64,000 bases of DNA, from NCBI GenBank assembly GCA_965248195.1, contig CBDFIQ010000001.1, positions 320,001 through 384,000 on the forward strand. The letters run 5' to 3'. The DNA comes from Longimicrobiales bacterium (GTDB lineage Bacteria > Gemmatimonadota > Gemmatimonadetes > Longimicrobiales > Gaopeijiaceae). Positions 37,726-63,767 of this stretch are shown one piece after another. The notes under the pieces were generated by a model, which saw only the letters and a list, made by a program, of their open reading frames with translations, ran no database searches and had not been told where the DNA came from. Within the stretch, counting starts at the first letter, position 1, and each line of letters starts with the position of its first letter. Both the position numbers and the translations under genes were made by a program.

Positions 37726-38106
37726 CTACCCGATCGCGTCGCTGCGCCCTCGGCGCTCTTCAAATTCGGGCAAGGTGAGAGTGTAGTCCTTTCCCCGCCA
37801 GTCGTCCTCGAGCTCGACACCCAGGCCATCGGCCAGGCGATTGACGTAGTTGTAGTAGGAGGCCACCTGACAAATATCGAGAATGGCGGCGGGGTCGAAT
37901 CCCACCTCGCGGAGGCGTTCGACATCCCCCTCACCCACTTTCCACGGCGTCAGGGTCAACTTCAACGCGTAGTCGAGCATCGCCCGGTCCTCAACTTCCA
38001 GATCGGCCTCGCGATGGTCGCGGGCGAGGGCCCTAGATAGCTCGGGGTTTTGCGTGAGCCTACGGAGTCCCGCTCCGTGATGGTTGATTCAGTAGAAGCA
38101 CTCGTT
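37726..38106 (-). pseudogene. 3' part of an AhpD/CMD-family peroxidase-related selenoprotein (CxxU), 5' end cut off by the prophage
   Basis: In frame upstream of the annotated Met: N-E-C-F-Y-TGA-INHHGAGLRRLTQ...DRAMLDYALKLT...YYNYVNRLADGLGV; an in-frame TAG lies directly before NEC, with no start codon. Confidence 0.85.
38062..38078 (-). promoter_or_regulatory. Putative bacterial SECIS hairpin
   Basis: 10 nt after UGA (38091-38089): ACGGAG-CGGGA-CUCCGU perfect 6-bp stem. Confidence 0.75.
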
Positions 38107-38110
38107 CTAC
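38092..38110. other. Putative prophage attachment core (tyrosine-recombinase type)
   Basis: GTAGAA-GCACTCG-TTCTAC: 6-bp IR around a 7-bp spacer exactly where the host gene breaks, 60 bp from the integrase stop; TATGGCA direct repeats at 38135 and 38147 may be arm sites. Confidence 0.7.
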
Positions 38111-38170
38111 CACAATCGAGCAAATACAACACTGTATGGCATGGCTTATGGCAAACCGTTGTTTTTGCTG

Positions 38171-39439
38171 TCACCCCTGGATCCTCTTTTCGATGTACTG
38201 AACGGCGGCCCGGTAGGTGTCAGGAATAAGGTGGGCGTAGGTCTCCTCGACGACCTTGGTCGTGTCACCTAGCAGGGTGGCGATCACATTGAGCGGAACG
38301 CCGTCCTGTGCCAGCCATGAGGCGTAAGTGTGACGACCCGAATGCAGCGTGAGCCCGTCGCCCTCCCTCCCGTACTTGATCCCGGCCAGCTCGAAGGCGT
38401 CCTGGGCCCAGCGAGCCGAGGTGCCGGCCGTCACAGGCTGGTCCCCGCGATGAGGGCTCACAATCAAGTACCGCTCCCCGGCATAGCCTCTGCGGAGGTG
38501 GTCTTCGATGATCGTGACGAGGCTCTCGGTGATTGGAACGTCCCTTTCACCGCGCCGCGTCTTCGGCCTCCAGGGATAGGCATCCTTGCGGGACTGGACG
38601 CGGATGAGCGGTTCGGGGCTCTCCAGGAGCACATCCACGTCGGTGCGCAGATGTAGGATCTCGCCTTGGCGCAGTCCGGCGAGGAACGCAATCGCGATCA
38701 TCGCCCGGCTGGGGATCCCAAGCATACCGCGGTCCAGGTCCACCCACTCCGGTGGAGTCAGGAACACAGCCCGTGTGGGCCGGATCTCGGGCATCTCGAC
38801 GCCCTTCCAGGGGTTGCTACGGATCGCAGGCTGTACGTTGCGGCGAGCGAGCAAGTCGGCCTCCTCGTCCATGACCATGCTCCAGAGTGCCCCGCACACG
38901 ACCTGGCAAGCCCCTTGGCTGGCAGGTGCCCACGGACGCCCCGCTGTGCTGGCTTTCGGGCCGTGCAGGTACGCGCGCGCCTCGTCGACCGTCAGCTCTT
39001 CCATAGGGAAGTCCGAGCCAACGTCTCTCTCAAGGTTCCCGAGAACCGTACGATACTTCTTGATGGTGGACCGACTGCGTGTCGCCTCTTTGAGCCTCAG
39101 GAACCTCTCGACGGCCGGCCCGAGCCGTGGCGAGTCGGAGCCCATGCGCCGCAGCTTGGTGGCGTCGCCGTTACGTAGCGCGGCCTGAGCGTCGGTGATG
39201 TGCATGTCGCCACGGCGGATCGCCTCGAGCACGTTCCAGTCGCCACGATCCATGAGCTGAGTCAGGACGGTATGGCGCTCGGTGGCCACATCCTGATCGC
39301 CGGTCCTGAGCGAGATCGCCAGGCGGCCGCCCTTGAACCGCGAGTGCCTACGGTCGAAGTAGGCGCGGCCAGCTCGCCATACGAGGCCCTTGGGGGCACG
39401 TGAGCGCTTTCTAGGGCCCACTGCCCACGAGCTCCTCAC
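38171..39439 (-). CDS. int: Phage tyrosine integrase
   Basis: AGLRQGE, K, HSGRH and LLGD.....EETYAH catalytic motifs (second His replaced). Confidence 0.92.
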   Translation of the reverse strand: MRSSWAVGPRKRSRAPKGLVWRAGRAYFDRRHSRFKGGRLAISLRTGDQDVATERHTVLTQLMDRGDWNVLEAIRRGDMHITDAQAALRNGDATKLRRMGSDSPRLGPAVERFLRLKEATRSRSTIKKYRTVLGNLERDVGSDFPMEELTVDEARAYLHGPKASTAGRPWAPASQGACQVVCGALWSMVMDEEADLLARRNVQPAIRSNPWKGVEMPEIRPTRAVFLTPPEWVDLDRGMLGIPSRAMIAIAFLAGLRQGEILHLRTDVDVLLESPEPLIRVQSRKDAYPWRPKTRRGERDVPITESLVTIIEDHLRRGYAGERYLIVSPHRGDQPVTAGTSARWAQDAFELAGIKYGREGDGLTLHSGRHTYASWLAQDGVPLNVIATLLGDTTKVVEETYAHLIPDTYRAAVQYIEKRIQG

Positions 39440-39653
39440 ACTCTTGGACGAAGCGATCGACAGCCTTCGGCGAGATTCGGTAGTGCGCCTTGCCAGAGCG
39501 CGACACGTTTAGGACCCCGGGGGGCTTCAGGTGGCCTTCGTGGATCATCTTGAGTACGAAGCCGGTGGACATCCCGCCGATGCGCTCGCCCGCCTGTTCC
39601 GTGCTGAGCCAGTTGTACTCCGCATCGTACTGCTCCAGGGTCTTCGTTCTCAT
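39411..39653 (-). CDS. Excisionase-like helix-turn-helix protein
   Basis: WLSTEQAGERIG...YRISPKAVDRF; directly upstream of int. Confidence 0.75.
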   Translation of the reverse strand: MRTKTLEQYDAEYNWLSTEQAGERIGGMSTGFVLKMIHEGHLKPPGVLNVSRSGKAHYRISPKAVDRFVQECEELVGSGP

Positions 39654-40684: not shown

Positions 40685-40756
40685 TAGCGGGGGGCGGACT
40701 CGAACCGCCGACCTTCGGGTTATGGGCCCGACGAGCTACCGCTGCTCTACCCCGCA
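40685..40756 (-). tRNA. tRNA-Met(CAU), initiator-like, phage-encoded, no encoded CCA
   Basis: Cloverleaf TGCGGGG/CCCCGCT, GAGC/GCTC, TCGGG-CCCATAA-CCCGA and GGCGG-TTCGAGT-CCGCC; 1:72 mismatch and 3 G-C pairs in the anticodon stem. Confidence 0.88.
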
Positions 40757-41033: not shown

Positions 41034-41642
41034 CTACGCGCTAGGCCCGATGTCTTCGACCTCATCGGCCGTGTACATCCCGAGCCCGATCTCAGGGCAG
41101 TAGACGCGCGTCCAGAAGCCGCCGGCCCGGTACATGAGCATCTGCTCGGGCATTGTCTTCCACTTGCTGCCGCCCTTCTCATACCAGCCCTCGGCCTTCG
41201 CCAGTGCGATCGTGATGAGAGCACCTACACACTCATCTCCGCCGTCCTTGTCGACGGCCACCGCTCGGCACCCCCAGTCGTCCGAGCCCTCCGTGCCCTC
41301 GAACCGGAAGCGCAGCGGCGAGAACCGGCCCGAAGCGTTCACCGTGGCAATCAAGAACTTCGACCTCCAGGCCGGGCGGCCGTGGATGATGTCTAGGTTC
41401 TGCATCACCATGAACACCGACGCGCCGGTGCGGTTGGCCAGCTCCATGGCGATGAGGCAGTTCGGGAGGTTGTCCTGGTACTCCTTGGGGACCAACGAGC
41501 TTTTTGTGAGCGCCATCCCCATCCGCTGTGCAGCCTCGAAGTTGCCCTCGCTGGCGAAAGCTCCAATCGCTCCGCCCTCGTCGGCTAGGGTTTGGAATTC
41601 GTACCCGTCCGCTCTTGTGGCCACTGCTGTTGCGTCATCCAT
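41034..41642 (-). CDS. RecT-like phage single-strand annealing protein
   Basis: SSLVPKEYQ..PNC.IA.E.A.R....VMQNL..IHGRP.W and W.TMPEQML.YRA; near the RecE-like gene. Confidence 0.75.
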   Translation of the reverse strand: MDDATAVATRADGYEFQTLADEGGAIGAFASEGNFEAAQRMGMALTKSSLVPKEYQDNLPNCLIAMELANRTGASVFMVMQNLDIIHGRPAWRSKFLIATVNASGRFSPLRFRFEGTEGSDDWGCRAVAVDKDGGDECVGALITIALAKAEGWYEKGGSKWKTMPEQMLMYRAGGFWTRVYCPEIGLGMYTADEVEDIGPSA

Positions 41643-41657
41643 CGTTCAACTCCCGGT

Positions 41658-42185
41658 CTAAAGATTCAGGCTCGCGAACTCGCCGAAGAGTTCTTTCGCC
41701 GCGACGTCCCGCGCCCTAGCCGCCTCTTCTTCGCTCACGAAATATCCGAGTTCTATCACTTTGCCTTCATGCTCGATCTTGGCTCGCCACCGCCTACGCA
41801 ACTCGGGCCGGCTCTTCTGGAAAGAGACCCCCAAATACCTGGACGACCCTCCCTTGCTGACCTTGTTTCGTTGGTTCTCCACCTGCGAACACACGCGGAG
41901 GTTGCCTCTCCTATTATCCAGGCCATCGTGGTTGATGTGGTCCACATAGACCCTTGGGTGGGTCACTCCGACGATGATCCGGTGCATGGACACCATTTTC
42001 GCGCCGAAGGCTAGTGGGGTCCTGCCAACGGCGTATTGATGCCCGCACTTGATGATCCGACACCAGCGGATCGCAGAAATGAGCGGGAGATCGATTAAGT
42101 CGAAGACGGCTACGTAATCACGTCCGATGTCCATCTGGATGACGTCGGCAACTACCTCGTAGCTATTGCGGGCGATCAGATTCAC
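41658..42185 (-). CDS. HNH endonuclease with C-terminal AP2 domain
   Basis: VDHINHDGLDNRRGNLR; SRYLGVS..WRAKI..LGYF..EEEAARARD. Confidence 0.9.
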   Translation of the reverse strand: MNLIARNSYEVVADVIQMDIGRDYVAVFDLIDLPLISAIRWCRIIKCGHQYAVGRTPLAFGAKMVSMHRIIVGVTHPRVYVDHINHDGLDNRRGNLRVCSQVENQRNKVSKGGSSRYLGVSFQKSRPELRRRWRAKIEHEGKVIELGYFVSEEEAARARDVAAKELFGEFASLNL

Positions 42186-43099
42186 TCGTCCTCCTGCCGC
42201 TCATCGAACGCCCAGGGAGGCATCTTCAAGGAGATCATCTCATCTGAGAACCCGGGCCAGTGATCGTCGCCCAGGCACATGGCGTATCTATTCAGGTGTC
42301 TCGTGATCTCTCGGTTGCTCGCCGCCAGGTCGTCCTCGTCGAGCAGATAGACGGCGACGGGGTAGGGAGGCTCATTCTCGGGCACGATGAGGACACTGGA
42401 GTTGCGTTCCCGGCCGAGCGCATCACAGCCCCGACGATAGAACGCAGCCTTGCGGTGATAACCCATCTTGGCGGCGTCCCGTCGGAACCCGTGTGGGCTC
42501 GCATCGCGAGCGGACTTGAGATCTGCGATGAGCAGTGAGCGCTCGACGTCCCGGTCGATCCGCATCTTGCAGAGCACTCCGGTCTCTTCGTCGCGCCAGA
42601 TGCCGGTCAACTCGTAATCGCCCCGACCCTGGAAGAACGTGCGAGCACGGGGATGCGCCTGGATCGCGGCAGTCATACCTTGCAGGTCCGCCATCGCGTC
42701 CTGGGACAGTACATGGACGCCCGGATCCATCGGCTCGCCGTCGAGGGGGTCGTGGCCCCTCACACCGCAGTACGATGATCCGTCACGGTAAACGCTGCCC
42801 TGGTTCTCGCATGGGAACCCGGACCTCTTCTGCGCCTCGCACTGGCCGAGCGTGACGTACTGGCCCTCGAACAACAGCGGCTCAAGGAGCGCCATGTGCA
42901 GCGCCGTGCCGAGCTCCATCGCCGGTGTTGACGGCTTCGGGTTGTCCCGGTAGTACCGGAAGTGGAGCGGGCTCTTGCGCAACTGCTCGATCCCCGACGC
43001 GCTCATCGCGTCGATGGCGAGGTACTCCTCCATCGTGAGCCCCTCGTGCCAACCCACTTCGATCGCGGTGGTCGGCTCTTCCATCGTCGCCGTGCTCAT
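42182..43099 (-). CDS. PD-(D/E)XK exonuclease VIII/RecE-like (DUF3799-type)
   Basis: SASGI, GTALH..LLEP, CKMRID, IADLKS and YHRKAAFY. Confidence 0.85.
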   Translation of the reverse strand: MSTATMEEPTTAIEVGWHEGLTMEEYLAIDAMSASGIEQLRKSPLHFRYYRDNPKPSTPAMELGTALHMALLEPLLFEGQYVTLGQCEAQKRSGFPCENQGSVYRDGSSYCGVRGHDPLDGEPMDPGVHVLSQDAMADLQGMTAAIQAHPRARTFFQGRGDYELTGIWRDEETGVLCKMRIDRDVERSLLIADLKSARDASPHGFRRDAAKMGYHRKAAFYRRGCDALGRERNSSVLIVPENEPPYPVAVYLLDEDDLAASNREITRHLNRYAMCLGDDHWPGFSDEMISLKMPPWAFDERQEDE

Positions 43100-43500
43100 C
43101 GGATCACCGTCACGCGGTCGACGCCAGCGCCTGGGATTTCATACGCGATCAGCCGATGGACGATCATGCCGACCGTATGCAGGTCCGCGACCCCGTCCTC
43201 GACGAGTACTCGAACACGACCGTCGAAGTCGCAGAGGTAGCAGAAGTGGACCGGCGTCCCACCGTGCTTGCCTGGGTCCTCAATTAGAACCGGCTCACAC
43301 CATTTCACGCAGTCGTGGCAGACGCGAAGGCCCTGCTCGTCGGAGAACTCCGCGTTCGTCTGGTCGTCGTAGCGAGCGACGGACTGGTCATTGCCCCGTC
43401 GATCGACGTAGACCACCGGAGTGTATCCCGGGTCGCCGTCGGCTTGCGCCTGCGCGCAGCAGTTGCCTCCGTCTCGTTCGACTAGCTTGACCTCATTCAT
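43096..43500 (-). CDS. Hypothetical phage protein, Cys-rich
   Basis: MNEVKL... with CHDC and CYLC; its SD (GGAGG) lies on the far side of the IS. Confidence 0.55.
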   Translation of the reverse strand: MNEVKLVERDGGNCCAQAQADGDPGYTPVVYVDRRGNDQSVARYDDQTNAEFSDEQGLRVCHDCVKWCEPVLIEDPGKHGGTPVHFCYLCDFDGRVRVLVEDGVADLHTVGMIVHRLIAYEIPGAGVDRVTVIR

Positions 43501-43502
43501 TC

Positions 43503-45069
43503 CGGAACCTGTCAACGACAATGGGACACTCTACGGGATTAATTAGAGAGCAATATCCTGTGTGGTGAGGGAAGGGATGGGAGGATTGATGTAGACGGCC
43601 TCCGGGAGCGGTTTGGGCTTCGGCACACCTGTGACGAAGCGTTCGGGATGAGCGGCCCATGCTTCGCGGAGCACGGATTTCCTGCCGGCAATGACCTGAT
43701 CGGCGTTCCCGAAGTGGACCTGCTCGGGGGTTAGCATCGAGATACCGCCATGGCGGTGCTCGGCATTGTACCAGCGGAAGAACGATCGACACAACGTCTT
43801 GGCCTGGCCCTGATCCCCGAACCGCCCGGGAAACGAGGGATGGTACTTCAAGGTTTTGAACTGAGCCTCGGAAAACGGGTTGTCATCCGACACCTGAGGC
43901 CGGCTCAACGAGCGAGTCACGCCGAGGTCAGCGAGAAGTTGAGCGGTGCATTGGCTCGTCATTGGAGCTCCCCGATCCGAGTGCAGGGTCAGGACCCGGG
44001 GCTGGACGCCATGCTTCAGGCAGCTCTGCTGGATCAACCGGCCGGCCAGGGCCGAGTTCTCCCGGTCCGCCACCATCCAGCCCACGACGTAGCGGCTGTA
44101 GATGTCCATGATGACGTAGAGGTAGTAATAGCTCCACTTCTTCGGCCCGAGTAGCCGCGTGATATCCCAGGACCACACCTGGTTCGGCGCCGTGGCCATC
44201 AACTCGGGCTTCTTGTACTCGGGATGGGTGCGCTGCGCCCGGCGTTCCTGAACCGGCACCTCGGAGGCCAGAACACGATACATCGTGCGTTCGCTGCACA
44301 GGTAGACCTCTTCGTCGAGCAGCGTGGCCACCACCTCGGCGGGTGAGCGGTCCACGAACCGCTCCGAACACAGCGTGTCGAAGACCTCGCCTCGTTCCGT
44401 CTCGCTCAATGCCCGGGCGGGCGTCGGGCGGGGCTGCCGTTGCCCGGTCGATGGGCCTCGACGACGGTAGAACGTCGATCGGGAGACCTCGAGAGCCGCG
44501 CACGCCGGTTTTACACCGACGTGCTTAGCCAGCTCATCGGCCGCCTTCAAGAGTTCGTCCCGTCGTCGAGGCTTATCCCCAGCAGCCCCGCAACTTTTCC
44601 CTGCACGTCGATGATCAGGTGTGCCTTCCTGAGCTCATTCTCGAGCCGTGCGTTTTGCCGCTCCAGCTTGCGTACCTTCTCATCCAGCGGATTCCGCTCC
44701 GGCTTGCGGCCGCGTTTCTTCGACAGGGCCTTCAGCGACCCGCTATGCGCCGCCTTGCGCCACGTCGTCAGGTGCGACGAGTACAGGCCCTCGCGCCGCA
44801 GGAGCTGACCCACCTCGCCGGGCTCGGTGCACCGGTCCGCTTCTTCGACGATCCGCAGCTTGTACGATGGACTGAACCGCCGGCGTAGCGGCCTATCTAC
44901 TACCTCCGGGTCCGCAGGAGCTGCCGCGCTTCGCTTGGCCTCCCCGATTCCAGGGGCACTACCATTCTCTTCCATTCTCTCTCGCAGTCCCAACATGTTC
45001 GTTTTCTCTGCCTTCGCCCTACTCTAATTCTTTGCGTGCTCCGTGTCTCACGTACGTTGGCAGAGAGGG
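43503..45069 (-). mobile_element. IS3-family element type 1, copy 1 (orfA 44547-44996, orfB 43543-44550)
   Basis: HTH orfA plus rve orfB (WSWDIT, HSDRG, DNPFSEA); 1567 bp, apparently identical to copies 2 and 3; flanks TTC/CTC (imperfect). Confidence 0.92.
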
Positions 45070-46105
45070 CTCCGGCCTCCAGCTCGGCCGCGGCGCACCA
45101 TCAAGTCACCGCCTCAAGCACACGAACCACCGTCTCGAGCCTCTCGCCTCCGGTGGCCGCTCGAACAAATTCGAGTGCGAGGGAGAACGCTTCTTCGTTT
45201 CGGCTCGACTCAAGGAACTCACATCCCGACTGGGTAAGCCGAAAGGCAGGATCGCCGACGGCGTTATCCTGCGTGAGCAGTCCGGCATCGAAGGGCGAGG
45301 TTGAGGTGAAGGGGCCCCTTCCCGAGCCCGCGTACCCCGGCCCGCCACCCACCCTCCTCAACCTTCATCAGGAGTTCACGCAGGTATGGCAGATCGCGCT
45401 TCACGTTGTCGTGCTCATCGATCCCACCCTCGCCCTGCGCTCTCGATACGCCTAGCTTCGGCGCGCAACGATTCCACGCTCCGCCTGGTGATGACGTCAC
45501 CGGCCCAGAATTGCACGGCGATTATCAGCCAGCAGCACACGAGTCCGAAAAAGAACGCTGTTCGGCCCGGGCGGTCTGCTGACGCTCTTCTCGAGCGGTT
45601 GGACCGCATACACGAGCTCGCGCTCCCTGTCTACCACACGATCGGCGAGGCGGTCCGGCAGTACGTGCTGGCTCATGGCGTTGACCCGCTGGAAATCGAC
45701 AGGGAGTTCTTGCGCGATCTCTTTGGCGACGAGAGATAGGCGGAAATCAGCGCACGGACCCACGCGGCCTCAATCTCAGCCACCGTCAGAAAGTCGCCCC
45801 GCTCTCGGGCCCTCAGCAGCGTCACAAGTAGTTCCGGATAGTGCTCGGCTAGCCAGGAGTCGAGGCGCAGGTCGGCGGACATCGAGCCGGCTCCGTCTCT
45901 CCCGTGTGCGCGTACCGGATGGTCGCAGTTCGATCTTCGGTCGCTCGGGCCGGGCCCCCTCACGGCGCCGCCTCCGTCTCCGCCAGCACGCGCTCGCTCA
46001 TGGACGAGAAGGCTCCCCCGCTGATACGATCAGCGTCGCCAAACAACCGATCAGCCATCAACGGAGGAGCCTCCTGTGAGCGTTCTGAGCACCGGCGAGA
46101 AACCG

Positions 46106-46760: not shown

Positions 46761-46777
46761 CCCTCACCCCCCGCCAG

Positions 46778-48153
46778 GGTAGTGTCCCTAGATTTGTGTA
46801 AAAGCGGATAAGCTGGACAGGAGGGAAAGAAAAACGGAAGCTCCTCTGTTGTTGTTCACTGTCACATGAACCCGGGAGTCCGGGTCTGCAGAGCAGGCTC
46901 GGAACCGGAGAGGAGCTTCCGATGCAAGAGATTGTGGAGATCGGTCGGGCCACGCAAGACGAGCTACGCGATGATTTGCGCGAGCTGTTTCAAGGCGCGA
47001 TCCGGCTGACGCTCGAGATGGTGCTGGAAGAGGAGCTGAAGGCCATGGTAGGTGCACGCCGCTTCGAGCGGGTGGGAAGCCGGAAGGACCATAGGAACGG
47101 CACATACCTGAGGCGGCTGCTGACGAGCCTGGGGCAGATCGAGGTCGCCATGCCCCGGAGCCGGGACAACGGTTCGCCGGCCGACGTGATCGGCCGCTAC
47201 CAGCGCAGGAGCCCCGAGCTCGACGAGATGATGGTCGAGGCGTATGTGAGCGGCGTGTCACAGCGCAAGATGGGCGACGTCACCGAGGCGCTGATGGGCG
47301 AGCGTGTTGGGCGCTCGACGGTGAGTCGTGTGGCAAAACGGCTCGACGAGGCCGTGGAAGGGCTGCGCCGTGCGCCGATCGAGGGGCCTCACCCCTATCT
47401 GTACCTGGACGCCACGTTCTTGGACGCCCGCTGGGCCCGCAAAGTCGAGAACGTGAGTGCGCTCGTGGCGTATGCAGTGGGCCCTGAGGGTCACCGACGG
47501 CTCCTGGCCGTCACGCTGGGCGCTGAGGAGTCGCAGCAGAGCTGGTCGGAGCTCCTCGAGCAACTCCAGGACCGCGGCCTCGGCGGTGTCGAGCTCGTGA
47601 TCGCCGATGAGCACGCAGGCCTGGCAGCTGCGGTCCGCCGCTTCCTGCCCGAGGCACGCCGTCAGAGGTGTACGGTCCATCTGCAGCGTAATGTGGGGGC
47701 GAGGGTCCCCCACCGCCTACGCAAGCGCGTGGCGCGTGAGGTCTCGGTGATCTTCCAGACATCCGGACTCGCCGAGGCGAAGAAGCTCCTGGGCGAGTTC
47801 GGCGCACGCTGGAAGAAGGAGCTGCCCGAGGCCGTGGAGGTCCTGGAGCGGGGCTTCGGGGCAGCGACGCAGTTCTACGCGTTCCCCGAGGCGCACTGGC
47901 CCCGGCTGCGTACCACCAACAGCCTCGAGCGGCTGCACGGCGAGATCAAACGCAGGATCAAGGCCGCCGGCGCCTTCCCGGACCGGGCCAGCGCCCTCAG
48001 GCTCATCACGGCCGTCGCACTCAGGACCACACACGTCTGGGGCGACCGGCGTTACCTCGACCTCTCACTCCTCCAGAAACAGGAGGTCGCCCAAGCAGCC
48101 TAGCCGAAGGCGAGGAGCTTCCTCCGCTTTTACACACAAATCGGGACTTGACC
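46778..48153 (+). mobile_element. IS256-family element, copy B (intact transposase 46922-48103)
   Basis: Same IRs as copy A; flanking repeat CCCGCCAG (46770-77 / 48154-61). Confidence 0.93.
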
Positions 48154-48344
48154 CCCGCCAGCACCACGCGGGCGAGTTCGGCGAGCCTCCAATGCTCCCA
48201 GTCGCCGCCCCATCGCTCGGCACGCTCCGTGTCACCGCCCCAGGAGTCGTACTCCGGTTCCGTCTCAGGCGCGTCCCGGACGATCTCGCGCAGACACGCC
48301 AACATCTCCGGCGCGGCGGCGATCAGCCGGGCGTTCGCCGTCAC
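48154..48344 (-). CDS. Small phage protein (ANARLIAAAPEM motif); 3' end displaced by IS256
   Basis: Common phage motif; GAGGAGG SD; original end LAGGEG* is restored by removing the IS. Confidence 0.65.
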
Positions 48345-49028: not shown

Positions 49029-49868
49029 ATGCATACGATCCTCGGTGTGCGGCTCGCGGAGTCCCGGAAACGGTCTGGCCTTACCCAGAATCGCCTTGCT
49101 GCTGAGATGGGGGAGCGATACGACCAGACAATGATCTCGGCCGTTGAGCGCGGTCAGTCAGCCATGCTCTTTGACGGCCTGTTAAAGGCCGCCCGTGTCC
49201 TCGACACCTCGCTCGACTACCTGGCTGGCCTCACCGACAACCCGATCCCAGTGGACGACCGGGCCCGCGAAGCCGAGGAGCGAGCCCGCGAAGCCGAGGC
49301 CCGGGTACGCCGAGAGGAAGCGCGGAACCGCCAGCAGCTTGAAGCCGCGCTGCGCACCGAGACGGAGCTGGAGCGCCTGCGGGCGCAGGCCGCCGCTACG
49401 GCCAAGCTCCCCGACCCCGACGTGTCCCCGATCCAGTCAGCGCCGGGCTGGCATGACGAAGACTACGAGTCCGTCAGACGCTACGAGTCCGAGGATGTAC
49501 GGCTCGCGGCGGGAACCGGAACGTTCACGGACCAAGAGCCCGCCGCAGGTGAGGTCAAATTCCGCACAAGCTGGCTGCGCAAGCGAAGGCTGAGGGCCAA
49601 GGACCTCTTCCTGGTCGATGTATTGGGCGATAGTATGGAGCGCACGATCTTCGACGGAGACGCGGCGCTAGTTGATGAGACCCACAGATCGCCACGCAGC
49701 GGTAAAATCTACGCACTTCAGGCGGGAGAGGGTCCACTGGTCAAGCGTGTTCGCAAGCGCGACCACCGCTGGTGGGCCGACAGCGACAACGAAGAGTACG
49801 AGCCGCAGCCGCTCGACGATCGAGCCCGAATCATGGGCCGCGTCGTCTGGTGGGCGCACACGGATTGA
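49029..49868 (+). CDS. CI-like repressor (XRE HTH, coiled-coil linker, S24 peptidase)
   Basis: GLTQ.RLA; AAGTG cleavage-like site; VLGDSME (Ser), LVKR (Lys) and GRVVW. Confidence 0.92.
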   Translation: MHTILGVRLAESRKRSGLTQNRLAAEMGERYDQTMISAVERGQSAMLFDGLLKAARVLDTSLDYLAGLTDNPIPVDDRAREAEERAREAEARVRREEARNRQQLEAALRTETELERLRAQAAATAKLPDPDVSPIQSAPGWHDEDYESVRRYESEDVRLAAGTGTFTDQEPAAGEVKFRTSWLRKRRLRAKDLFLVDVLGDSMERTIFDGDAALVDETHRSPRSGKIYALQAGEGPLVKRVRKRDHRWWADSDNEEYEPQPLDDRARIMGRVVWWAHTD

Positions 49869-50808: not shown

Positions 50809-52865
50809 GTGGACGGGCAAGATGTTGCGGGAATCAAGGTGAGGCGGAACAGCCAGGCTATTACCAAACTCAAGGCTCATGCAGAGCATCTGCTCTGAAT
50901 CGCCCCGGGTTCATCGGAGACTGTTTGACTTGAGTGTCAGAGGCTCACCTGGAGCGTCCTGACGCGAATAATACAACTCTTCGTACTCGGCCGGCGGGAT
51001 ATGGCCGTGGGGCTCGAAGAGGCGATGGTGATTGAACCACCAGACCCATTCGAGGGTGGCGAGCTCGATGTCTTCGAGGGTGCGCCACGGACCGCGTGGA
51101 CGAATGAGCTCGGTCTTGTAGAGTCCGATGATCGTCTCGGCCAGGGCGTTGTCATACGAATCCCCCCGGCTGCCTACGGACGGCTCGATGCCTGCCAACG
51201 CCAGGCGCTCGGTGTAGCGGATAGACAGGTACTGCCCCCCGCGGTCGCTGTGATGCACCAGGCGCTTGTCTGCGTCGTCCTCGCGTTCACAGATCGCCTG
51301 CTCGAGAGCGTCGAGCGCTAAGTCACTGCGTAATGAGTTCGAGACCCGCCATCCGACGATGCGACGGCTGAACGCATCGATCACGAACGCCACGAAGACA
51401 AACGCATGGCCCGTCCGCACGTACGTGAGGTCCGAGACCCACAGCTCGTTGGGACGTGCCGCGCTGAAGTCTCGGTTCACGAGGTCCAGCGGGCGCTCGT
51501 CGCCCTCCGCCGTGTGCGTTGTCACCTTGAAGCGCCGCCCTCGCGTAACCCCACAAAGCTCCAGTTCCTTCATGAGCCGAGCCACCGTGCATCGAGCCAC
51601 GGTGATGCCTTCCCGGTTCAGCTGCTTCCACACCTTCTTCGCCCCGTAGACCTGGAAGTTCTGCATCCACACTCGACGGATCTCCGGCTTCAGCATCTCG
51701 TCGCGCTGAGCCCGGACCGATCGTAGCGTCGGATCTGCCTGCATCGCCTTGTGCGTGTAGTAGGTCGACGGAGCGATCGGCAGTACCTCGCAGATCGGCT
51801 CGACTCCGTACGTGGGCCGGTAATCGTCGATGAAGGCCACCATCACCGAACTCGGCGGTCGAGCTCCGCCTGTGCGAAATACGCCGATGCCTTACGCAGA
51901 ATCTCGTTCGCCCGCTTCAGCTCACGATTCTCACGCTCCAGCACCTTCAGTCGCTCACGCTCTTCTGTCTTGAGACCGGGCCGTTGCCCCGTGTCTCGCT
52001 CCGCTCGTCGAACCCATTTACGTAGCGTCTCCGCCGTGCACCCGATCTTCTCCGAGATCGAGCAGATCGCCGCCCACTGTGAGCTGTACTCAGGCTCGTG
52101 CTCGAAAACCATCCGAACGGCTCGCTCCCGTACCTCTGGGGAGTACTGTCCTTTCCTTTTCATGACTCCATCCTCTCAACTGATGGAGTCTCCGGCAAAC
52201 CCGGGGTGATTCAGCTCGACAACTATCGTGAGACGGTAACGACCCTCGCGATAATGGAGCCGATGGTGTCCAACAGCGCCGTGCGAGAGTCGTGCGGCCG
52301 CGGCGATGCGCGCTGGGGCTTCCTAATCGTGCGTAGCACTCTTTTCCTCAACGTGGTTCTGCGTATTGCCAAGCTTGTCTTTGATAAATATTCCAGTACT
52401 CCGAGTGTCCATACGATCGTGGATGAAGTCATGCATCCCGAGGTAGCCGGGATTCTGAAGAACGAATACGTGGATGGGTACTGTGCCGTCGACTCTTCGA
52501 GCGATAGATCGCTTCACGAGGGTGAGTTTGACAGCCACTTGAACGAACTGCGGTCCCTAGCACAGGAAGTCAAAGCCGATCCGTTGTTCCTGTGCGCAAA
52601 GAAGGTGCGAGACAAGTCCATTGCTCACTGGGAAGTGGTATATAGGAACGGCAAGTATGAGTTATATGATATTAGCCAACACGACCTGAAGTGGACATCA
52701 CCGCGAGACATGATTGAGAGGCTTAGGCCGGTCATTGACAAGGTTAATCTAGTAGTCCGCGGTGCGTCATTCGGTTGGGAATCCCTCAAATCCGGTAGTG
52801 AAGGCATAGCTGACGGCTACTGGGCGGCGGCGTGTGCCGCTGGACAGCACGACGCAGCCCCCTGA
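50809..52865 (+). pseudogene. HEPN (AbiU2-like) protein of about 244 aa, split by IS3 type 2
   Basis: Removing the IS and one GCTC joins ...KLKAHAEHLL|DNYRETV...; R-x4-H-type motif RDKSIAH. Confidence 0.7.
50896..52213 (-). mobile_element. IS3-family element type 2 (orfA 51843-52163, orfB 50911-51846)
   Basis: TGAATCGCCCCGGG...CCCGGGGTGATTCA IRs; 4-bp TSD GCTC; WVSDLTYV, HHSDRG and DNALAE. Confidence 0.95.
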
Positions 52866-55793: not shown

Positions 55794-58440
55794 ATGGCAT
55801 GGAACACGTTGGAGCATACGAAGTCCAAGGTGGATCGGGCTGGGGGAACACTGAAGTCAGGCAACGAGCACGGTACCTTCAAGTCCTTCCAGGACTACCT
55901 AGATCGCACCGAAGCCCTGGACGTTATTAACAACTTCCGCTCGTCACATGGTTATCCACTTCACGTGATTACCATGAGGCTCCGCCAGAATGCGCCTAAG
56001 ATAGATGATCAAGCGATTGTGGCTCAACGGTTGAAGCGTCTCGTCTCGATTGACGCAAAGCTGCGCCGCTTTTCCTGGCTCAAGCTGTCCCGCATGCAGG
56101 ACATAGGCGGTTGTCGGGCTGTCCTAGGGAGCGTGACCAGGGTTGAGCGGCTGCATGAGTGGTATTCTACCCGCCAGTGTGCATCCAAGATGCGGCGAGT
56201 GGACAATTACATCGAGAATCCGAAATCGGACGGATATCGCGGTATTCACTACGTCTATGAGTACCGCAGCACGACCGAGCAATACGAGGTCTACAACGGC
56301 TTCCAAGTTGAAGTGCAGCTACGTTCCGCCCTTCAACATGCTTCGGAACCTGTCAACGACAATGGGACACTCTACGGGATTAATTAGAGAGCAATATCCT
56401 GTGTGGTGAGGGAAGGGATGGGAGGATTGATGTAGACGGCCTCCGGGAGCGGTTTGGGCTTCGGCACACCTGTGACGAAGCGTTCGGGATGAGCGGCCCA
56501 TGCTTCGCGGAGCACGGATTTCCTGCCGGCAATGACCTGATCGGCGTTCCCGAAGTGGACCTGCTCGGGGGTTAGCATCGAGATACCGCCATGGCGGTGC
56601 TCGGCATTGTACCAGCGGAAGAACGATCGACACAACGTCTTGGCCTGGCCCTGATCCCCGAACCGCCCGGGAAACGAGGGATGGTACTTCAAGGTTTTGA
56701 ACTGAGCCTCGGAAAACGGGTTGTCATCCGACACCTGAGGCCGGCTCAACGAGCGAGTCACGCCGAGGTCAGCGAGAAGTTGAGCGGTGCATTGGCTCGT
56801 CATTGGAGCTCCCCGATCCGAGTGCAGGGTCAGGACCCGGGGCTGGACGCCATGCTTCAGGCAGCTCTGCTGGATCAACCGGCCGGCCAGGGCCGAGTTC
56901 TCCCGGTCCGCCACCATCCAGCCCACGACGTAGCGGCTGTAGATGTCCATGATGACGTAGAGGTAGTAATAGCTCCACTTCTTCGGCCCGAGTAGCCGCG
57001 TGATATCCCAGGACCACACCTGGTTCGGCGCCGTGGCCATCAACTCGGGCTTCTTGTACTCGGGATGGGTGCGCTGCGCCCGGCGTTCCTGAACCGGCAC
57101 CTCGGAGGCCAGAACACGATACATCGTGCGTTCGCTGCACAGGTAGACCTCTTCGTCGAGCAGCGTGGCCACCACCTCGGCGGGTGAGCGGTCCACGAAC
57201 CGCTCCGAACACAGCGTGTCGAAGACCTCGCCTCGTTCCGTCTCGCTCAATGCCCGGGCGGGCGTCGGGCGGGGCTGCCGTTGCCCGGTCGATGGGCCTC
57301 GACGACGGTAGAACGTCGATCGGGAGACCTCGAGAGCCGCGCACGCCGGTTTTACACCGACGTGCTTAGCCAGCTCATCGGCCGCCTTCAAGAGTTCGTC
57401 CCGTCGTCGAGGCTTATCCCCAGCAGCCCCGCAACTTTTCCCTGCACGTCGATGATCAGGTGTGCCTTCCTGAGCTCATTCTCGAGCCGTGCGTTTTGCC
57501 GCTCCAGCTTGCGTACCTTCTCATCCAGCGGATTCCGCTCCGGCTTGCGGCCGCGTTTCTTCGACAGGGCCTTCAGCGACCCGCTATGCGCCGCCTTGCG
57601 CCACGTCGTCAGGTGCGACGAGTACAGGCCCTCGCGCCGCAGGAGCTGACCCACCTCGCCGGGCTCGGTGCACCGGTCCGCTTCTTCGACGATCCGCAGC
57701 TTGTACGATGGACTGAACCGCCGGCGTAGCGGCCTATCTACTACCTCCGGGTCCGCAGGAGCTGCCGCGCTTCGCTTGGCCTCCCCGATTCCAGGGGCAC
57801 TACCATTCTCTTCCATTCTCTCTCGCAGTCCCAACATGTTCGTTTTCTCTGCCTTCGCCCTACTCTAATTCTTTGCGTGCTCCGTGTCTCACGTACGTTG
57901 GCAGAGAGGGCTTGGGCTACCGCAACGGAGACAGTATCAACGTTTACTGGCCAACGGCTTAAGGGGGGATTGGGAGAGGTAGAATGGTTTCGCTTCTTCA
58001 CACTTATGGCGAACGCTCTGGCGATGCGTGAGAAACGCGCCCTTGTACCAGACGCCCCAGATGATGAAGGCGAGCTTGTTGCTGAACTGACGGATTTGGC
58101 TGGGACATTAAACGTAGAAGTCGTACTCCGTGGATGGCAGACAGCCATGGAAATTCTAGGGGAGGCCCCTAAGGACGCTAGGGTGTTTCTCCTAGTCCTC
58201 AACCCCACCGAAAGGACCCTGGAGGCGATCCCATTCAGTGCAGAGCATGCAGCACTGGCGTCGAACCGATATCTAGAGGTAGAGAAAGAGATTGCGAAAA
58301 AACCAAATATCGAAGCGGTGCTCGTAAAGACGGACTCAGTCGCGGCGCTAAGGAAAGCGTATCCGAATTACTACGTGGACATGAACTCATTTCTAAACGC
58401 TATGGCTCTGGCGCTTCACTCCCCGGTCTTGGCCGGGTAA
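55794..58440 (+). pseudogene. capRel: Fused CapRel-like toxSAS toxin-antitoxin (about 358 aa), split by IS3 type 1
   Basis: AQRLKR, MQDIGGCR, GYRGIH and EVQLRS.LQHA|WATATE across the IS; C-terminal LRKAYPNYY.D (YxxY). Confidence 0.8.
56344..57910 (-). mobile_element. IS3-family element type 1, copy 2
   Basis: Same as copy 1; TSD CTT (or GCTT). Confidence 0.95.
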
Positions 58441-58524
58441 GAATGTGCGTCGTCAATGCGATCATTCGTCTGAGGCCCGATCCCCGACGGCCACGAACTC
58501 GCCGTCTGGACGGAAGCCTAGGCC

Positions 58525-58569
58525 AGCCACGCGGTCGGGTGGACGGGGAGGACGATGCGATGGAGAAGG
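58525..58569 (+). repeat. Degenerate repeat of about 45 bp, copy 2 (downstream of CapRel-like gene)
   Basis: AGCCACGCGGTCgGGTGgACGgGGAGG....TGcGATGGAgAA. Confidence 0.7.
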
Positions 58570-58681
58570 CGGAGCCCAGCTGCTGTAGGAAACCGATGGC
58601 CTGTCAGAGGGGTTTAACACTTGTGTACGGACTGTCCCAACGTATTTTCTCGGTGCATGGACCCAATATGGGAGGCTGAGT

Positions 58682-60443
58682 ATGAGTGATGCGGAACCTG
58701 TCAACGACAATGGGACACTCTACGGGATTAATTAGAGAGCAATATCCTGTGTGGTGAGGGAAGGGATGGGAGGATTGATGTAGACGGCCTCCGGGAGCGG
58801 TTTGGGCTTCGGCACACCTGTGACGAAGCGTTCGGGATGAGCGGCCCATGCTTCGCGGAGCACGGATTTCCTGCCGGCAATGACCTGATCGGCGTTCCCG
58901 AAGTGGACCTGCTCGGGGGTTAGCATCGAGATACCGCCATGGCGGTGCTCGGCATTGTACCAGCGGAAGAACGATCGACACAACGTCTTGGCCTGGCCCT
59001 GATCCCCGAACCGCCCGGGAAACGAGGGATGGTACTTCAAGGTTTTGAACTGAGCCTCGGAAAACGGGTTGTCATCCGACACCTGAGGCCGGCTCAACGA
59101 GCGAGTCACGCCGAGGTCAGCGAGAAGTTGAGCGGTGCATTGGCTCGTCATTGGAGCTCCCCGATCCGAGTGCAGGGTCAGGACCCGGGGCTGGACGCCA
59201 TGCTTCAGGCAGCTCTGCTGGATCAACCGGCCGGCCAGGGCCGAGTTCTCCCGGTCCGCCACCATCCAGCCCACGACGTAGCGGCTGTAGATGTCCATGA
59301 TGACGTAGAGGTAGTAATAGCTCCACTTCTTCGGCCCGAGTAGCCGCGTGATATCCCAGGACCACACCTGGTTCGGCGCCGTGGCCATCAACTCGGGCTT
59401 CTTGTACTCGGGATGGGTGCGCTGCGCCCGGCGTTCCTGAACCGGCACCTCGGAGGCCAGAACACGATACATCGTGCGTTCGCTGCACAGGTAGACCTCT
59501 TCGTCGAGCAGCGTGGCCACCACCTCGGCGGGTGAGCGGTCCACGAACCGCTCCGAACACAGCGTGTCGAAGACCTCGCCTCGTTCCGTCTCGCTCAATG
59601 CCCGGGCGGGCGTCGGGCGGGGCTGCCGTTGCCCGGTCGATGGGCCTCGACGACGGTAGAACGTCGATCGGGAGACCTCGAGAGCCGCGCACGCCGGTTT
59701 TACACCGACGTGCTTAGCCAGCTCATCGGCCGCCTTCAAGAGTTCGTCCCGTCGTCGAGGCTTATCCCCAGCAGCCCCGCAACTTTTCCCTGCACGTCGA
59801 TGATCAGGTGTGCCTTCCTGAGCTCATTCTCGAGCCGTGCGTTTTGCCGCTCCAGCTTGCGTACCTTCTCATCCAGCGGATTCCGCTCCGGCTTGCGGCC
59901 GCGTTTCTTCGACAGGGCCTTCAGCGACCCGCTATGCGCCGCCTTGCGCCACGTCGTCAGGTGCGACGAGTACAGGCCCTCGCGCCGCAGGAGCTGACCC
60001 ACCTCGCCGGGCTCGGTGCACCGGTCCGCTTCTTCGACGATCCGCAGCTTGTACGATGGACTGAACCGCCGGCGTAGCGGCCTATCTACTACCTCCGGGT
60101 CCGCAGGAGCTGCCGCGCTTCGCTTGGCCTCCCCGATTCCAGGGGCACTACCATTCTCTTCCATTCTCTCTCGCAGTCCCAACATGTTCGTTTTCTCTGC
60201 CTTCGCCCTACTCTAATTCTTTGCGTGCTCCGTGTCTCACGTACGTTGGCAGAGAGGGATGCGCCGGATCGGGCTAAGGTCACGGTGAGGGATTCGGGTG
60301 TCCGTACAGTATCTGTAGCTGACATCCTGAGGAGCAGAGCAGGTCAAGAAGCAATCCGCGAGACGGCCAAGCTCGGGCTCGGCTCCGAGGCCAGTGCAAG
60401 AACAGAGAAGAGCGATCCCGAGGTGAGCCCGCCAGACAGTTAG
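58682..60443 (+). pseudogene. Small 63-aa protein (MSDAPDRAKVTVRDSG...) split by IS3 type 1
   Basis: GGAGG SD at 58671; removing the IS and one ATG joins ATG AGT GAT G|CG CCG GAT. Confidence 0.7.
58692..60258 (-). mobile_element. IS3-family element type 1, copy 3
   Basis: Same as copies 1 and 2; TSD ATG (or GATG). Confidence 0.95.
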
Positions 60444-62459: not shown

Positions 62460-63010
62460 CGTGGCACCACCGGAAAGATGGTCCTGATCTCGCACTCCGC
62501 GAAGTGGGGGTCCTCATGGGAGCCGCCGCCCTTGAGATCGTGGATCGATTCGTGCGAGACCACTTCAGGGCTATTCACTGCGCGCCGGTCCAACATGATC
62601 TCGCGTGGTGGAGGAGCGGACCACCCGCCGAACTTTCTCTCGAGCGCATGGAGATCGAGCAAGAAGTCGACGACGTACCAGCGGATCGCGAAGAAATCTC
62701 CGCGGAGTCCCGTGCACTCTTCGGCAAGCGAGTAGATGTAGGCGTGCATCGTGGTCGGGTAGAACTCGATCTTGTTCCAGAAGCGTATCTCGGTCCAGCC
62801 CGTCTCTGTAGACGCTGACGGAGGCGCTACTGCCGCGAGGGACGGCGGAGCGGATCGCGTGGCGCAGCCGGCGAGAACTATGCTTGCGGCCAACACGAAG
62901 GCCGGCGCCCTGCGGTCGTCTCTCCAGAGCAGAACGCAGAGTACGGTGCCCAAGGTCACACAGACCGCCACGAACGCGGCCACGACGGTTTGGAGGGCGG
63001 AGCGGATCAT
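62456..63010 (-). CDS. Membrane/lipoprotein with HExxH motif in the lysis cassette
   Basis: TM, LAGC lipobox-like motif and SHESIHD; ATGA coupling. Confidence 0.6.
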   Translation of the reverse strand: MIRSALQTVVAAFVAVCVTLGTVLCVLLWRDDRRAPAFVLAASIVLAGCATRSAPPSLAAVAPPSASTETGWTEIRFWNKIEFYPTTMHAYIYSLAEECTGLRGDFFAIRWYVVDFLLDLHALERKFGGWSAPPPREIMLDRRAVNSPEVVSHESIHDLKGGGSHEDPHFAECEIRTIFPVVPR

Positions 63011-63522
63011 GACGCTGTCTGTCTCCGGAGGTAATTGACGCGGGACAGCCACCCGAGCAGGAACTTGCGGGACGCCGTGCGCCGGCGCGTGATCGCCTCG
63101 TAGAATGCCAGCCGCGCCCAGAGCATCCGGTTTACGAGTTCGTCCGGCTGTGCGGCACGCACGGCGCCGAGCGTCATGGGTCCGATCTTGCCGTCGTCAG
63201 CAACCCTCGCGGCCCGCTGTAGCAGCTTCGCGGCGTTCCTTAGCCCGTGGTTCACGCACGCGTCGAAGTGAGCCCCAGACGCGGGCCAGGGCAGCGCATC
63301 GCACTTTCCGGCGACCCAGTATCGCTCGTGGTATATCGCATCCACATCGGCGTCCGAGATCCCGCGTACGTCCTTCTGGGGCAAGCCCTTCGACTTCCGC
63401 CATGCGTCATACGTCTTGTGGGTGATCCCCTTGTTCGTGGCACCGCCAGGATCGTCGGGGTCGTTGACGTAACCGCCCTCGAAGCGGAGCGTGACCGGGA
63501 GCGCCTGGAGGAAGCCGCTCAT
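63007..63522 (-). CDS. Endolysin, glycoside hydrolase family 108 with PG-binding tail
   Basis: EGGYVNDPDDPGGATNKGIT, DGKIGPMTL and FLLGWLSR. Confidence 0.93.
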   Translation of the reverse strand: MSGFLQALPVTLRFEGGYVNDPDDPGGATNKGITHKTYDAWRKSKGLPQKDVRGISDADVDAIYHERYWVAGKCDALPWPASGAHFDACVNHGLRNAAKLLQRAARVADDGKIGPMTLGAVRAAQPDELVNRMLWARLAFYEAITRRRTASRKFLLGWLSRVNYLRRQTAS

Positions 63523-63767
63523 AGATCGAAGTCCGCACGACCCGAAGGGAGGTCCATCGGCTCGGTTCCCCGGTACGTACTCACGATGCTCTTCCCACCG
63601 GCGACCGTGATCCACGGGGCTGTGATCGAGATGAACGGAACGGGATCATCGAAGTAGATCGCGAGGGCGGCCGACAGCAGAACCACCCAGGGCGTCACCT
63701 TCCAGAACCGGGAGTTGCGGACCCAGCCGTTCACTTGTCGGCGCCTCCGTTTCCCCCGCCCAACCAC
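63519..63767 (-). CDS. Putative holin
   Basis: Small 2-TM protein directly upstream of the endolysin; start uncertain. Confidence 0.55.
   Translation of the reverse strand: MVGRGKRRRRQVNGWVRNSRFWKVTPWVVLLSAALAIYFDDPVPFISITAPWITVAGGKSIVSTYRGTEPMDLPSGRADFDL

Follow-up and report, generated by a model that had tools for sequence, protein, structure and literature searches.

The stretch of DNA analysed here (the window, 64,000 nucleotides) is C1:320,001-384,000 of the source genome G000 (contigs C1 and C2). In the window, the integrase end of a prophage adjoins the 3' half of a selenoprotein gene. The features concerned are the following:

37726-38106, minus strand: 3' half (126 codons) of an AhpD-like, peroxidase-related selenoprotein gene, beginning N-E-C-F-Y-U (TIGR01926, 96.5 bits, cut-off 81.8)
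38062-38078, minus strand: SECIS-like hairpin with a 6-bp stem and a 5-nt loop, 10 nt after the UGA
38089-38091, minus strand: in-frame TGA, read as selenocysteine (CxxU) on account of the alignment of homologues and the Sec machinery
38092-38110, no strand given: attR core, composed of the phage half-site GTAGAA, a 7-bp overlap (38098-38104) and the host half-site TTCTAC, the overlap being identical to that of the attL at C2:3,338,978
38107-38109, minus strand: in-frame TAG within the phage core half-site, in the same register at five of five attR ends
38111-38170, minus strand: P arm of the phage, with TATGGCA repeats (38135, 38147) and CAACGGTTT (38153-38161)
38098-64000, minus strand: the part within the window of a 46.3-kb hybrid prophage body that reaches C1:404,419 and has ends from two different host genes
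38171-39439, minus strand: tyrosine integrase of 422 aa with R257, K293, H366-x-x-R369 and Y401 (PF00589, phrog_1)
39411-39653, minus strand: small helix-turn-helix protein, from its position a probable excisionase (HTH_17, E 7e-5, below cut-off)
40685-40756, minus strand: phage-borne tRNA-Met(CAT), also found in three other prophage copies
41034-43099, minus strand: RecT-like annealase and RecE-like exonuclease VIII (phrog_561, phrog_412)
49029-49868, plus strand: CI-like repressor with HTH and S24 autopeptidase domains
63007-63615, minus strand: endolysin (phrog_315)

Read directly from the window, positions 38092-38110 are GTAGAA-GCACTCG-TTCTAC, and the minus-strand frame across them gives TAG (38109-38107), N-E-C-F-Y and TGA (38091-38089), followed by I-N-H-H-G-A-G. 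The distance from the core to the stop of the integrase is exactly 60 bp, and copies of TATGGCA lie at 38135 and 38147. All sequence features that the initial annotation had described here (core, N-E-C-F-Y codons, TAG, Sec TGA, 60-bp gap and TATGGCA) are present. By itself, the inverted repeat is weak evidence for an att core; the window contains 24 perfect 6-7-6 inverted repeats, that is, about 0.04 in every 110 bp. What proves the core is the partner end at C2:3,338,975-990, where GAA-CGAGTGC-TTC is common to both ends and the missing 80 N-terminal codons join in frame:

G000 C2:3,338,748-3,338,984, plus strand: 5' half (80 codons) of the AhpD-like gene

This 5' half ends with GTGAA-CGAGTGC-TTCAAC and is followed by phage DNA. 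The proposal that the repeat is the att core of a tyrosine-integrase prophage is therefore borne out by a partner end with the identical overlap CGAGTGC, and a 5' half with a duplicated core does exist, as had been expected. In the terms of att anatomy, we see a 7-bp overlap between inverted core half-sites, duplicated at both ends. Note that the positions of the cuts were taken from where sequence identity ends, and that the perfect inverted repeat is confined to the hybrid end at the window, the reconstructed attB being GTGAA-N7-TTCTAC.

The arms of the phage are less uniform than the window suggests. We rejected TATGGCA as a conserved arm repeat, because the pair is perfect only in the window copy (one of five) and one repeat is altered in the other four. 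The 9-bp CAACGGTTT is found in both phage arms, P and P', and would be the better candidate for an arm site. At the attL ends of G000, G005, G011 and G209, the P' arm begins with 6-8 variable bases (TTCAAC, ATCAAC, TTCCTC, TTCGTC), and the P half-site is nearly fixed; the variable bases are possibly host half-sites brought along from earlier targets. A scan of genome and viral contigs for the P' arm pattern gave no match in sets that may omit near relatives. A trpS-like gene (C2:253,066-253,100) has 15 bp in common with the att core, which we treated as chance; about 11 bp of the P arm stand beside this match in swapped order, probably also by chance.

When the two AhpD halves are rejoined at the overlap, an intact gene of 202 codons results, and neither half has stops or frameshifts. 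The rejoined 3-kb locus is collinear with G001 on both sides, and the integration is therefore real and precise. That a CxxU AhpD-like selenoprotein gene has been split, as the initial annotation had recognised, is thus confirmed by the TIGR01926 match and by the halves in the window and on C2. A search for AhpD-like homologues in 61 genomes gave 30 loci, 29 of them outside G000. At the Sec position these 29 have TGA in 22 cases and Cys in 6 (one was not alignable), and none of them (0/29) is interrupted at the phage site. Both the profile match and the alignment of Sec with Cys in homologues place the protein among the AhpD-like CxxU proteins, which is a known family; there is nothing unusual about the protein itself. 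We also found selA, selB, selD and tRNA-Sec in G000, all above their cut-offs.

The hairpin after the UGA is a plausible candidate SECIS, judging from the aligned sequences: 98.1% of the cells are paired in 18 of the 30 loci (the close, TGA-bearing ones). No double-sided (compensatory) change was seen among these 18 sequences, and the z value of the whole fold in the hairpin region, 0.18, is not significant. Two other genes of G000 may be mentioned here. An intact distant paralogue with C-P-F-TGA at C1:468.9-469.4 kb (minus strand) reads through and is a probable second CxxU selenoprotein, and selD itself (C1:691,290-692,213) has one in-frame TGA and is a probable selenoprotein as well. In the contig sets of four sequencing runs, we were not able to find a piece bridging the AhpD-phage junction among those listed; intact AhpD alleles of relatives occur in contigs of all four runs, among the matches listed. 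A start of AhpD supplied by the phage was rejected, since the core has the in-frame TAG at all five attR ends.

The integrase matches PF00589 with 55.9 bits (cut-off 27.1). Its residues R257, K293, H366, R369 and Y401 are invariant in 15 aligned integrase sequences, and the usual catalytic H/W position is D in most of them and N in two; among PDB structures there is only a distant match (4a8e, E 1e-4). A scan of viral and metagenome contigs with the integrase gave no match, in sets that may omit near relatives. The prophage body of the window carries genes for terminase, portal, capsid, endolysin and repressor and six IS-like blocks, and no tail genes were found in it. Copy B has capsid, major tail and tape measure genes; taken together, the two copies have the gene content of a tailed temperate phage. 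The repressor had been assigned to the S24 type, and an S24 domain was indeed found. From their annotation, the RecT-like and RecE-like proteins could promote recombination between prophage copies.

Prophage B is the most complete copy and lies about 4 kb from dnaA (G000 C1:800,317-805,728). IS copies inside the prophage are located at 43,500-45,070, 46,770-48,155, 50,900-52,200 and 56,340-60,260 of the window, and two of their families have roughly 50 and 100 near-identical copies genome-wide. The integrase of G005 (C1:1,619,783) is broken near its C-terminus by an IS-like insertion.

There are five copies of the integrase in G000, 96.4-100% identical, and the attR and attL ends number five each. 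Among them they occupy AhpD, an MMPL-like transporter gene, two genes for probable beta-barrel proteins, a winged-helix/cyclase gene and a gene which we take to be of the VOC family and which has no Pfam match (the winged-helix and cyclase labels come from Pfam, those of the transporter and the barrels were read from the sequences). Relatives of the integrase were searched at three depths, matching 6 of 101, 5 of 314 and 11 of 401 genomes, G000 included. In the relatives, both ends are mapped for five prophages (three of G209 and one each of G005 and G011), whose integrases are 67-95% identical. Each has its own overlap, identical at both ends and situated inside another protein gene. In the relatives, AhpD is the target of 0/5 mapped prophages. 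In total, we count 11 host genes with 11 different overlaps in 4 genomes, none used twice; the count leaves out attR E, a fragment in G106 and six integrase homologues of 39-45% identity.

What the 11 sites have in common is a loose core, (G/C)A(A/T)-N7-(A/T)TC, which has 14,285 matches on both strands of G000 if the overlap ends are G or C. We were not able to find a single preferred attB per integrase. In sequencing run X1, integrase-side contigs break at 38104 (at least 4 contigs) and at 38106 (at least 2) and continue into other host flanks. Rejoining each matched att pair restores a host reading frame. Moreover, the first base of each of the 11 overlaps is at codon position 3 in the direction of the gene, and therefore fusions at such sites stay in frame. 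We rejected this register as a selected trait: 61-77% of candidate sites genome-wide have it as well (with crude gene calls), the chance of 11/11 is roughly 0.005-0.06, and the register is mostly accounted for by codon bias. The end attR E was set aside as an independent site, as it stands in one VOC-family gene with attL e, 57 bp further downstream, and may reflect a slippage deletion. This gene is split by a fifth prophage, whose ends, at C2:3,043,083 and C2:286,374, are in inverted orientation with about 2.76 Mb between them; 57 bp of the gene are gone.

The far end of the window's prophage body is not the AhpD 5' half. It is an attL at C1:404,419 that adjoins the 5' half of the winged-helix gene, and its overlap, CCCCCAG, matches that of the window at 1/7 positions. 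The two AhpD halves flank different prophage bodies; they are co-directional and, as assembled, 1,163,264 bp apart on the circle, with dnaA (C1:800 kb), parB (792 kb) and selD (691 kb) between them and the rRNA operon outside. Because dnaA and parB lie between the halves, joining the matched ends would split the chromosome. The circle itself follows from two contig overlaps, one of 1,117 bp between the ends of C2 and C1 and one of 3,140 bp between the start of C2 and a place near the start of C1. The former join is one that we infer, as its overlap lies in a 16.4-kb repeat of which prophage B has an identical copy; if the join were made into prophage B through this repeat instead, dnaA would still stand between the AhpD halves. 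The 1.05-Mb segment was rejected as a second replicon, given that the one dnaA above cut-off and the one parB that we found are both on it. Similarly, the winged-helix attL and attR C were rejected as products of one attB once their true partners had been found.

It could be argued that the assembly has confused near-identical prophages and so produced the swapped ends, and that the AhpD prophage is one excisable unit. Both contigs do break in repeats, and prophages B and C share 16.4 kb of perfect identity. However, perfect identity between the window's body and the body at the 5' half extends over at most 1.75 kb, and that between the window's body and B over at most 1.8 kb; if the AhpD ends were paired, the result would be a circle of 3.7 Mb that has rRNA and lacks dnaA and parB. 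In addition, a chimeric scar in unique DNA, described below, independently shows that ends have lost their partners. We therefore consider an artefact quite improbable, and the exchange of prophage ends in G000 as shown. It may have come about by two inversions between inverted copies, with three prophages involved, and the subsequent excision of the one hybrid copy whose overlaps nearly match; one stray integrase reaction and then one homologous re-fusion would fit as well.

Undoing the junctions gives a single ancestral circle in which a 212-kb segment moves. The GC skew of this segment, -1.24% (95% range -2.44 to -0.06), stands between +2.06 and +1.53 and so has the wrong sign for its present place, which is weak evidence consistent with the reconstruction; the skew of the segment at C2:3,044-3,339 kb (+0.74) does not fit it. 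In G209, a 41-kb prophage body (C1:492,183-533,193) has unmatched overlaps at its ends, with the partner ends near contig ends; this body is not distinguishable from a misassembly, the contigs of G209 breaking inside near-identical copies. An array of 17 tRNA genes on one strand (G000 C1:1,071,378-1,073,597) lies near the switch of the GC skew, about 240-270 kb from dnaA.

We can now return to the idea that a prophage had been directed to the Sec motif and acts there as a stress-controlled switch, which on excision would restore the peroxidase or else provide it with a Cys ending. Both halves are intact, their overlaps are identical, and the rejoined gene has 202 codons; an S24 repressor and a probable excisionase are at hand, and excision before the rearrangement would have restored the AhpD gene. 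The same integrase clade, however, sits in 11 unrelated host genes, ten of them other than AhpD, which counts against a targeting of the Sec motif, and the AhpD-like loci and mapped prophages of the relatives speak against it likewise (0/29 and 0/5, see above). Excision from the window could not bring the halves together: the 5' half is 1.16 Mb away, past dnaA and parB, the far end belongs to the winged-helix gene, and the body is devoid of tail genes. Nor does the far end offer an alternative Cys C-terminus, as it reads NECF-NPKTLTEPVKPHRYA-stop (NPKT...stop). Lysis genes are present, and we saw no sign of a non-lethal route of excision. The distal end of the prophage holds no AhpD 5' half, an outcome that the initial annotation had itself named as speaking against the switch. 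For G000 as assembled, the switch is already refuted, and we regard it as very improbable; neither matched ends on one element nor a conserved target across strains, as expected for regulated gene integrity, were found.

The reading that we prefer, with a probability of roughly 0.78, is that a lambda-like temperate phage hit AhpD by chance and that the gene is locked off and not switchable. The phage would have entered AhpD because the V-N-E-C-F codons happen to spell the loose core (G/C)A(A/T)-N7-(A/T)TC.

What the exchange of ends can leave behind is seen elsewhere in the genome. The missing 3' half of the winged-helix gene is located at C1:145,983, where it is fused, with no phage DNA in between, to the 5' half of a barrel gene whose own 3' end flanks attR C:

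G000 C1:145,398-147,977, plus strand: chimera of a signal peptide and probable beta-barrel 5' half with a cyclase/TPR 3' half, open over 859 codons

The junction reads GAA-CACTCAG-ATC, and cyclase and TPR domains follow the barrel part. Intact versions of the parent genes exist in relatives, the barrel gene in G005 and the winged-helix/cyclase gene in G006. Only 0.3% of the scar region is repeat, i.e. it is unique DNA, and the scar is therefore not a repeat-driven misjoin. Among longer proteins, 0/603 candidates were other barrel-cyclase fusions, which is weak evidence. Tentatively, and with more doubt than confidence, one may see in this phage lineage a natural engine of domain shuffling: it would adopt the overlap of the gene that it has entered, reach thousands of coding sites, and leave seamless in-frame fusions when near-matching hybrids excise, the gene at C1:145.4-148.0 kb being one product, and an expressed one.

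How does the overlap come to differ at every site? In 7 of 8 true pairs (AhpD, the MMPL-like transporter, G005, G011 and three in G209) the overlaps are identical at both ends. In the eighth (B/b), attL has the host sequence of 3/4 relatives and attR is one base off. The host overlap equals that of the attL or the scar in all three testable cases (3/3), namely the barrel gene, the winged-helix gene (G006) and the second barrel gene (G005). A single base separates the overlap of attR C, CCCTCAG, from that of the winged-helix site (CCCCCAG, G006), and likewise a single base from that of the barrel site (CACTCAG, G005). Within G000, no more than two bases distinguish the overlaps in 3/15 pairs (P=0.03 relative to random consensus sites, with a threshold picked after seeing the data). 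Over all 11 sites, the mean distance between overlaps is 4.55 as against 4.64 for random sites, with 5/55 close pairs (P=0.11), so that their diversity fits full tolerance of heterology as well as it fits drift.

Following our preferred reading, specificity would be set by the overlap with a tolerance of one or two mismatches, and a phage leaving a mismatched site would carry a new overlap, such that the lineage hops from site to site. We saw no free attP. It also counts against this explanation that the closest relative has GAC where the AhpD overlap of G000 has GAG, so that the overlap seen here need not be the original one of the host. On the other hand, the integrase may tolerate a largely unmatched overlap, as do those of IntDOT and Tn916, and repair may copy the 7 bp of the host to both ends; the phage would then be a transposon-like integrator making 7-bp target duplications. 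Such tolerance would suit the 11 sites with no reuse and overlaps as diverse as random, the 14,285 consensus matches and the several further host flanks in run X1, and IntDOT is described as requiring just one matching base (PMC2817482). Unrepaired heterology, however, should give unlike ends, whereas the true pairs differ by at most one base and 7/8 are identical; bodies with ends matching at 1/7 positions remain, while the near-matching hybrid appears to be gone; and the overlaps within G000 fall into groups of near neighbours. We consider such a tolerant integrase unlikely, if by no means negligible, and lean towards overlap matching with one or two mismatches and an inherited overlap.

A selenoprotein switch would have been new, and what the data show is a chance hit. 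The route to new specificity that was proposed from lambda secondary sites has a natural example in a complete tailed phage whose overlap differs at each of 11 sites. G000 also keeps a rarely visible series of events, from multiple lysogeny over the exchange of ends and megabase rearrangement to a seamless in-frame fusion of host genes. Methods that call prophage borders on the assumption that one element has matching ends would assign such prophages wrongly, and gene switches that do not exist could be reported. If the shuffling reading is true, the integrase is a naturally retargetable tool.

Several parts of this picture are already known: the lambda-type att anatomy, secondary sites, inversions between related elements and integration into coding DNA. 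With the lambda type our phage shares the 7-bp overlap between inverted half-sites, an integrase adjoining attR, a CI/S24 repressor, RecE/RecT and the lambda-like head and tail genes of copy B; it differs from it in that this clade is without a visible primary site and uses 11 genes with 11 overlaps. Examples of regulated gene integrity, or active lysogeny, are skin and comK. There, as here, an element interrupts a functional gene that precise excision would restore, but here we find no conserved target and no excisable unit, and lysis genes are kept.

AhpD-like 1 and 2 are described as CxxU selenoproteins (PMC2398784), and the protein split here resembles such AhpD-like selenoproteins (TIGR01926) in its CxxU motif, its Cys homologues and the downstream hairpin. 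Integration into coding DNA is reported for 39.9% of mapped proviruses (PMC13626063) and for 43.4% of islands (PMC12424338). According to the ProBord report, 79.89% of species-level provirus clusters have one att-core cluster, with a mean of 1.39 (PMC13626063), and secondary sites have been proposed as a route to new specificity (Rutkai 2006, as cited in PMC8371274). In the titles and abstracts that we searched, outside of subscription journals, there was none on a phage in a Sec motif, none on an excision leaving an in-frame host chimera, and none on a tailed phage whose overlap changes with every site; for the last, supplements were likewise outside, and their site tables could hold this clade.

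The closest systems are found among other tyrosine recombinases. The mv4 integrase is reported to have degenerate core half-sites and to recombine any 7-bp overlap if both sites match (10.1101/2023.11.06.565760). This integrase, of the Tn916 family, resembles ours in the degenerate half-sites and the 7-bp overlap of any sequence; mv4, however, has one natural site (tRNA-Ser) and was retargeted by synthetic libraries, whereas here the retargeting appears natural and goes with 1-base mismatches. The integrases of IntDOT and Tn916/Tn1549 are described as tyrosine recombinases with many targets and tolerance of mismatches (PMC2817482; PMC8138268). Unlike in these elements, we have a tailed phage, GC-rich coding targets and a nearly equal overlap at both ends. 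The ends of Tn916 carry unlike coupling sequences.

Finally, homologous recombination between copies is reported to rearrange the chromosome and to make hybrids for TKV2 and TKV3 in Thermococcus kodakarensis and for pneumococcal lytA (PMC8371274, PMC8637289). In G000, by comparison, the ends that were exchanged belong to different protein genes and have one codon register, so that the loss of a hybrid leads to an in-frame fusion of two host genes.
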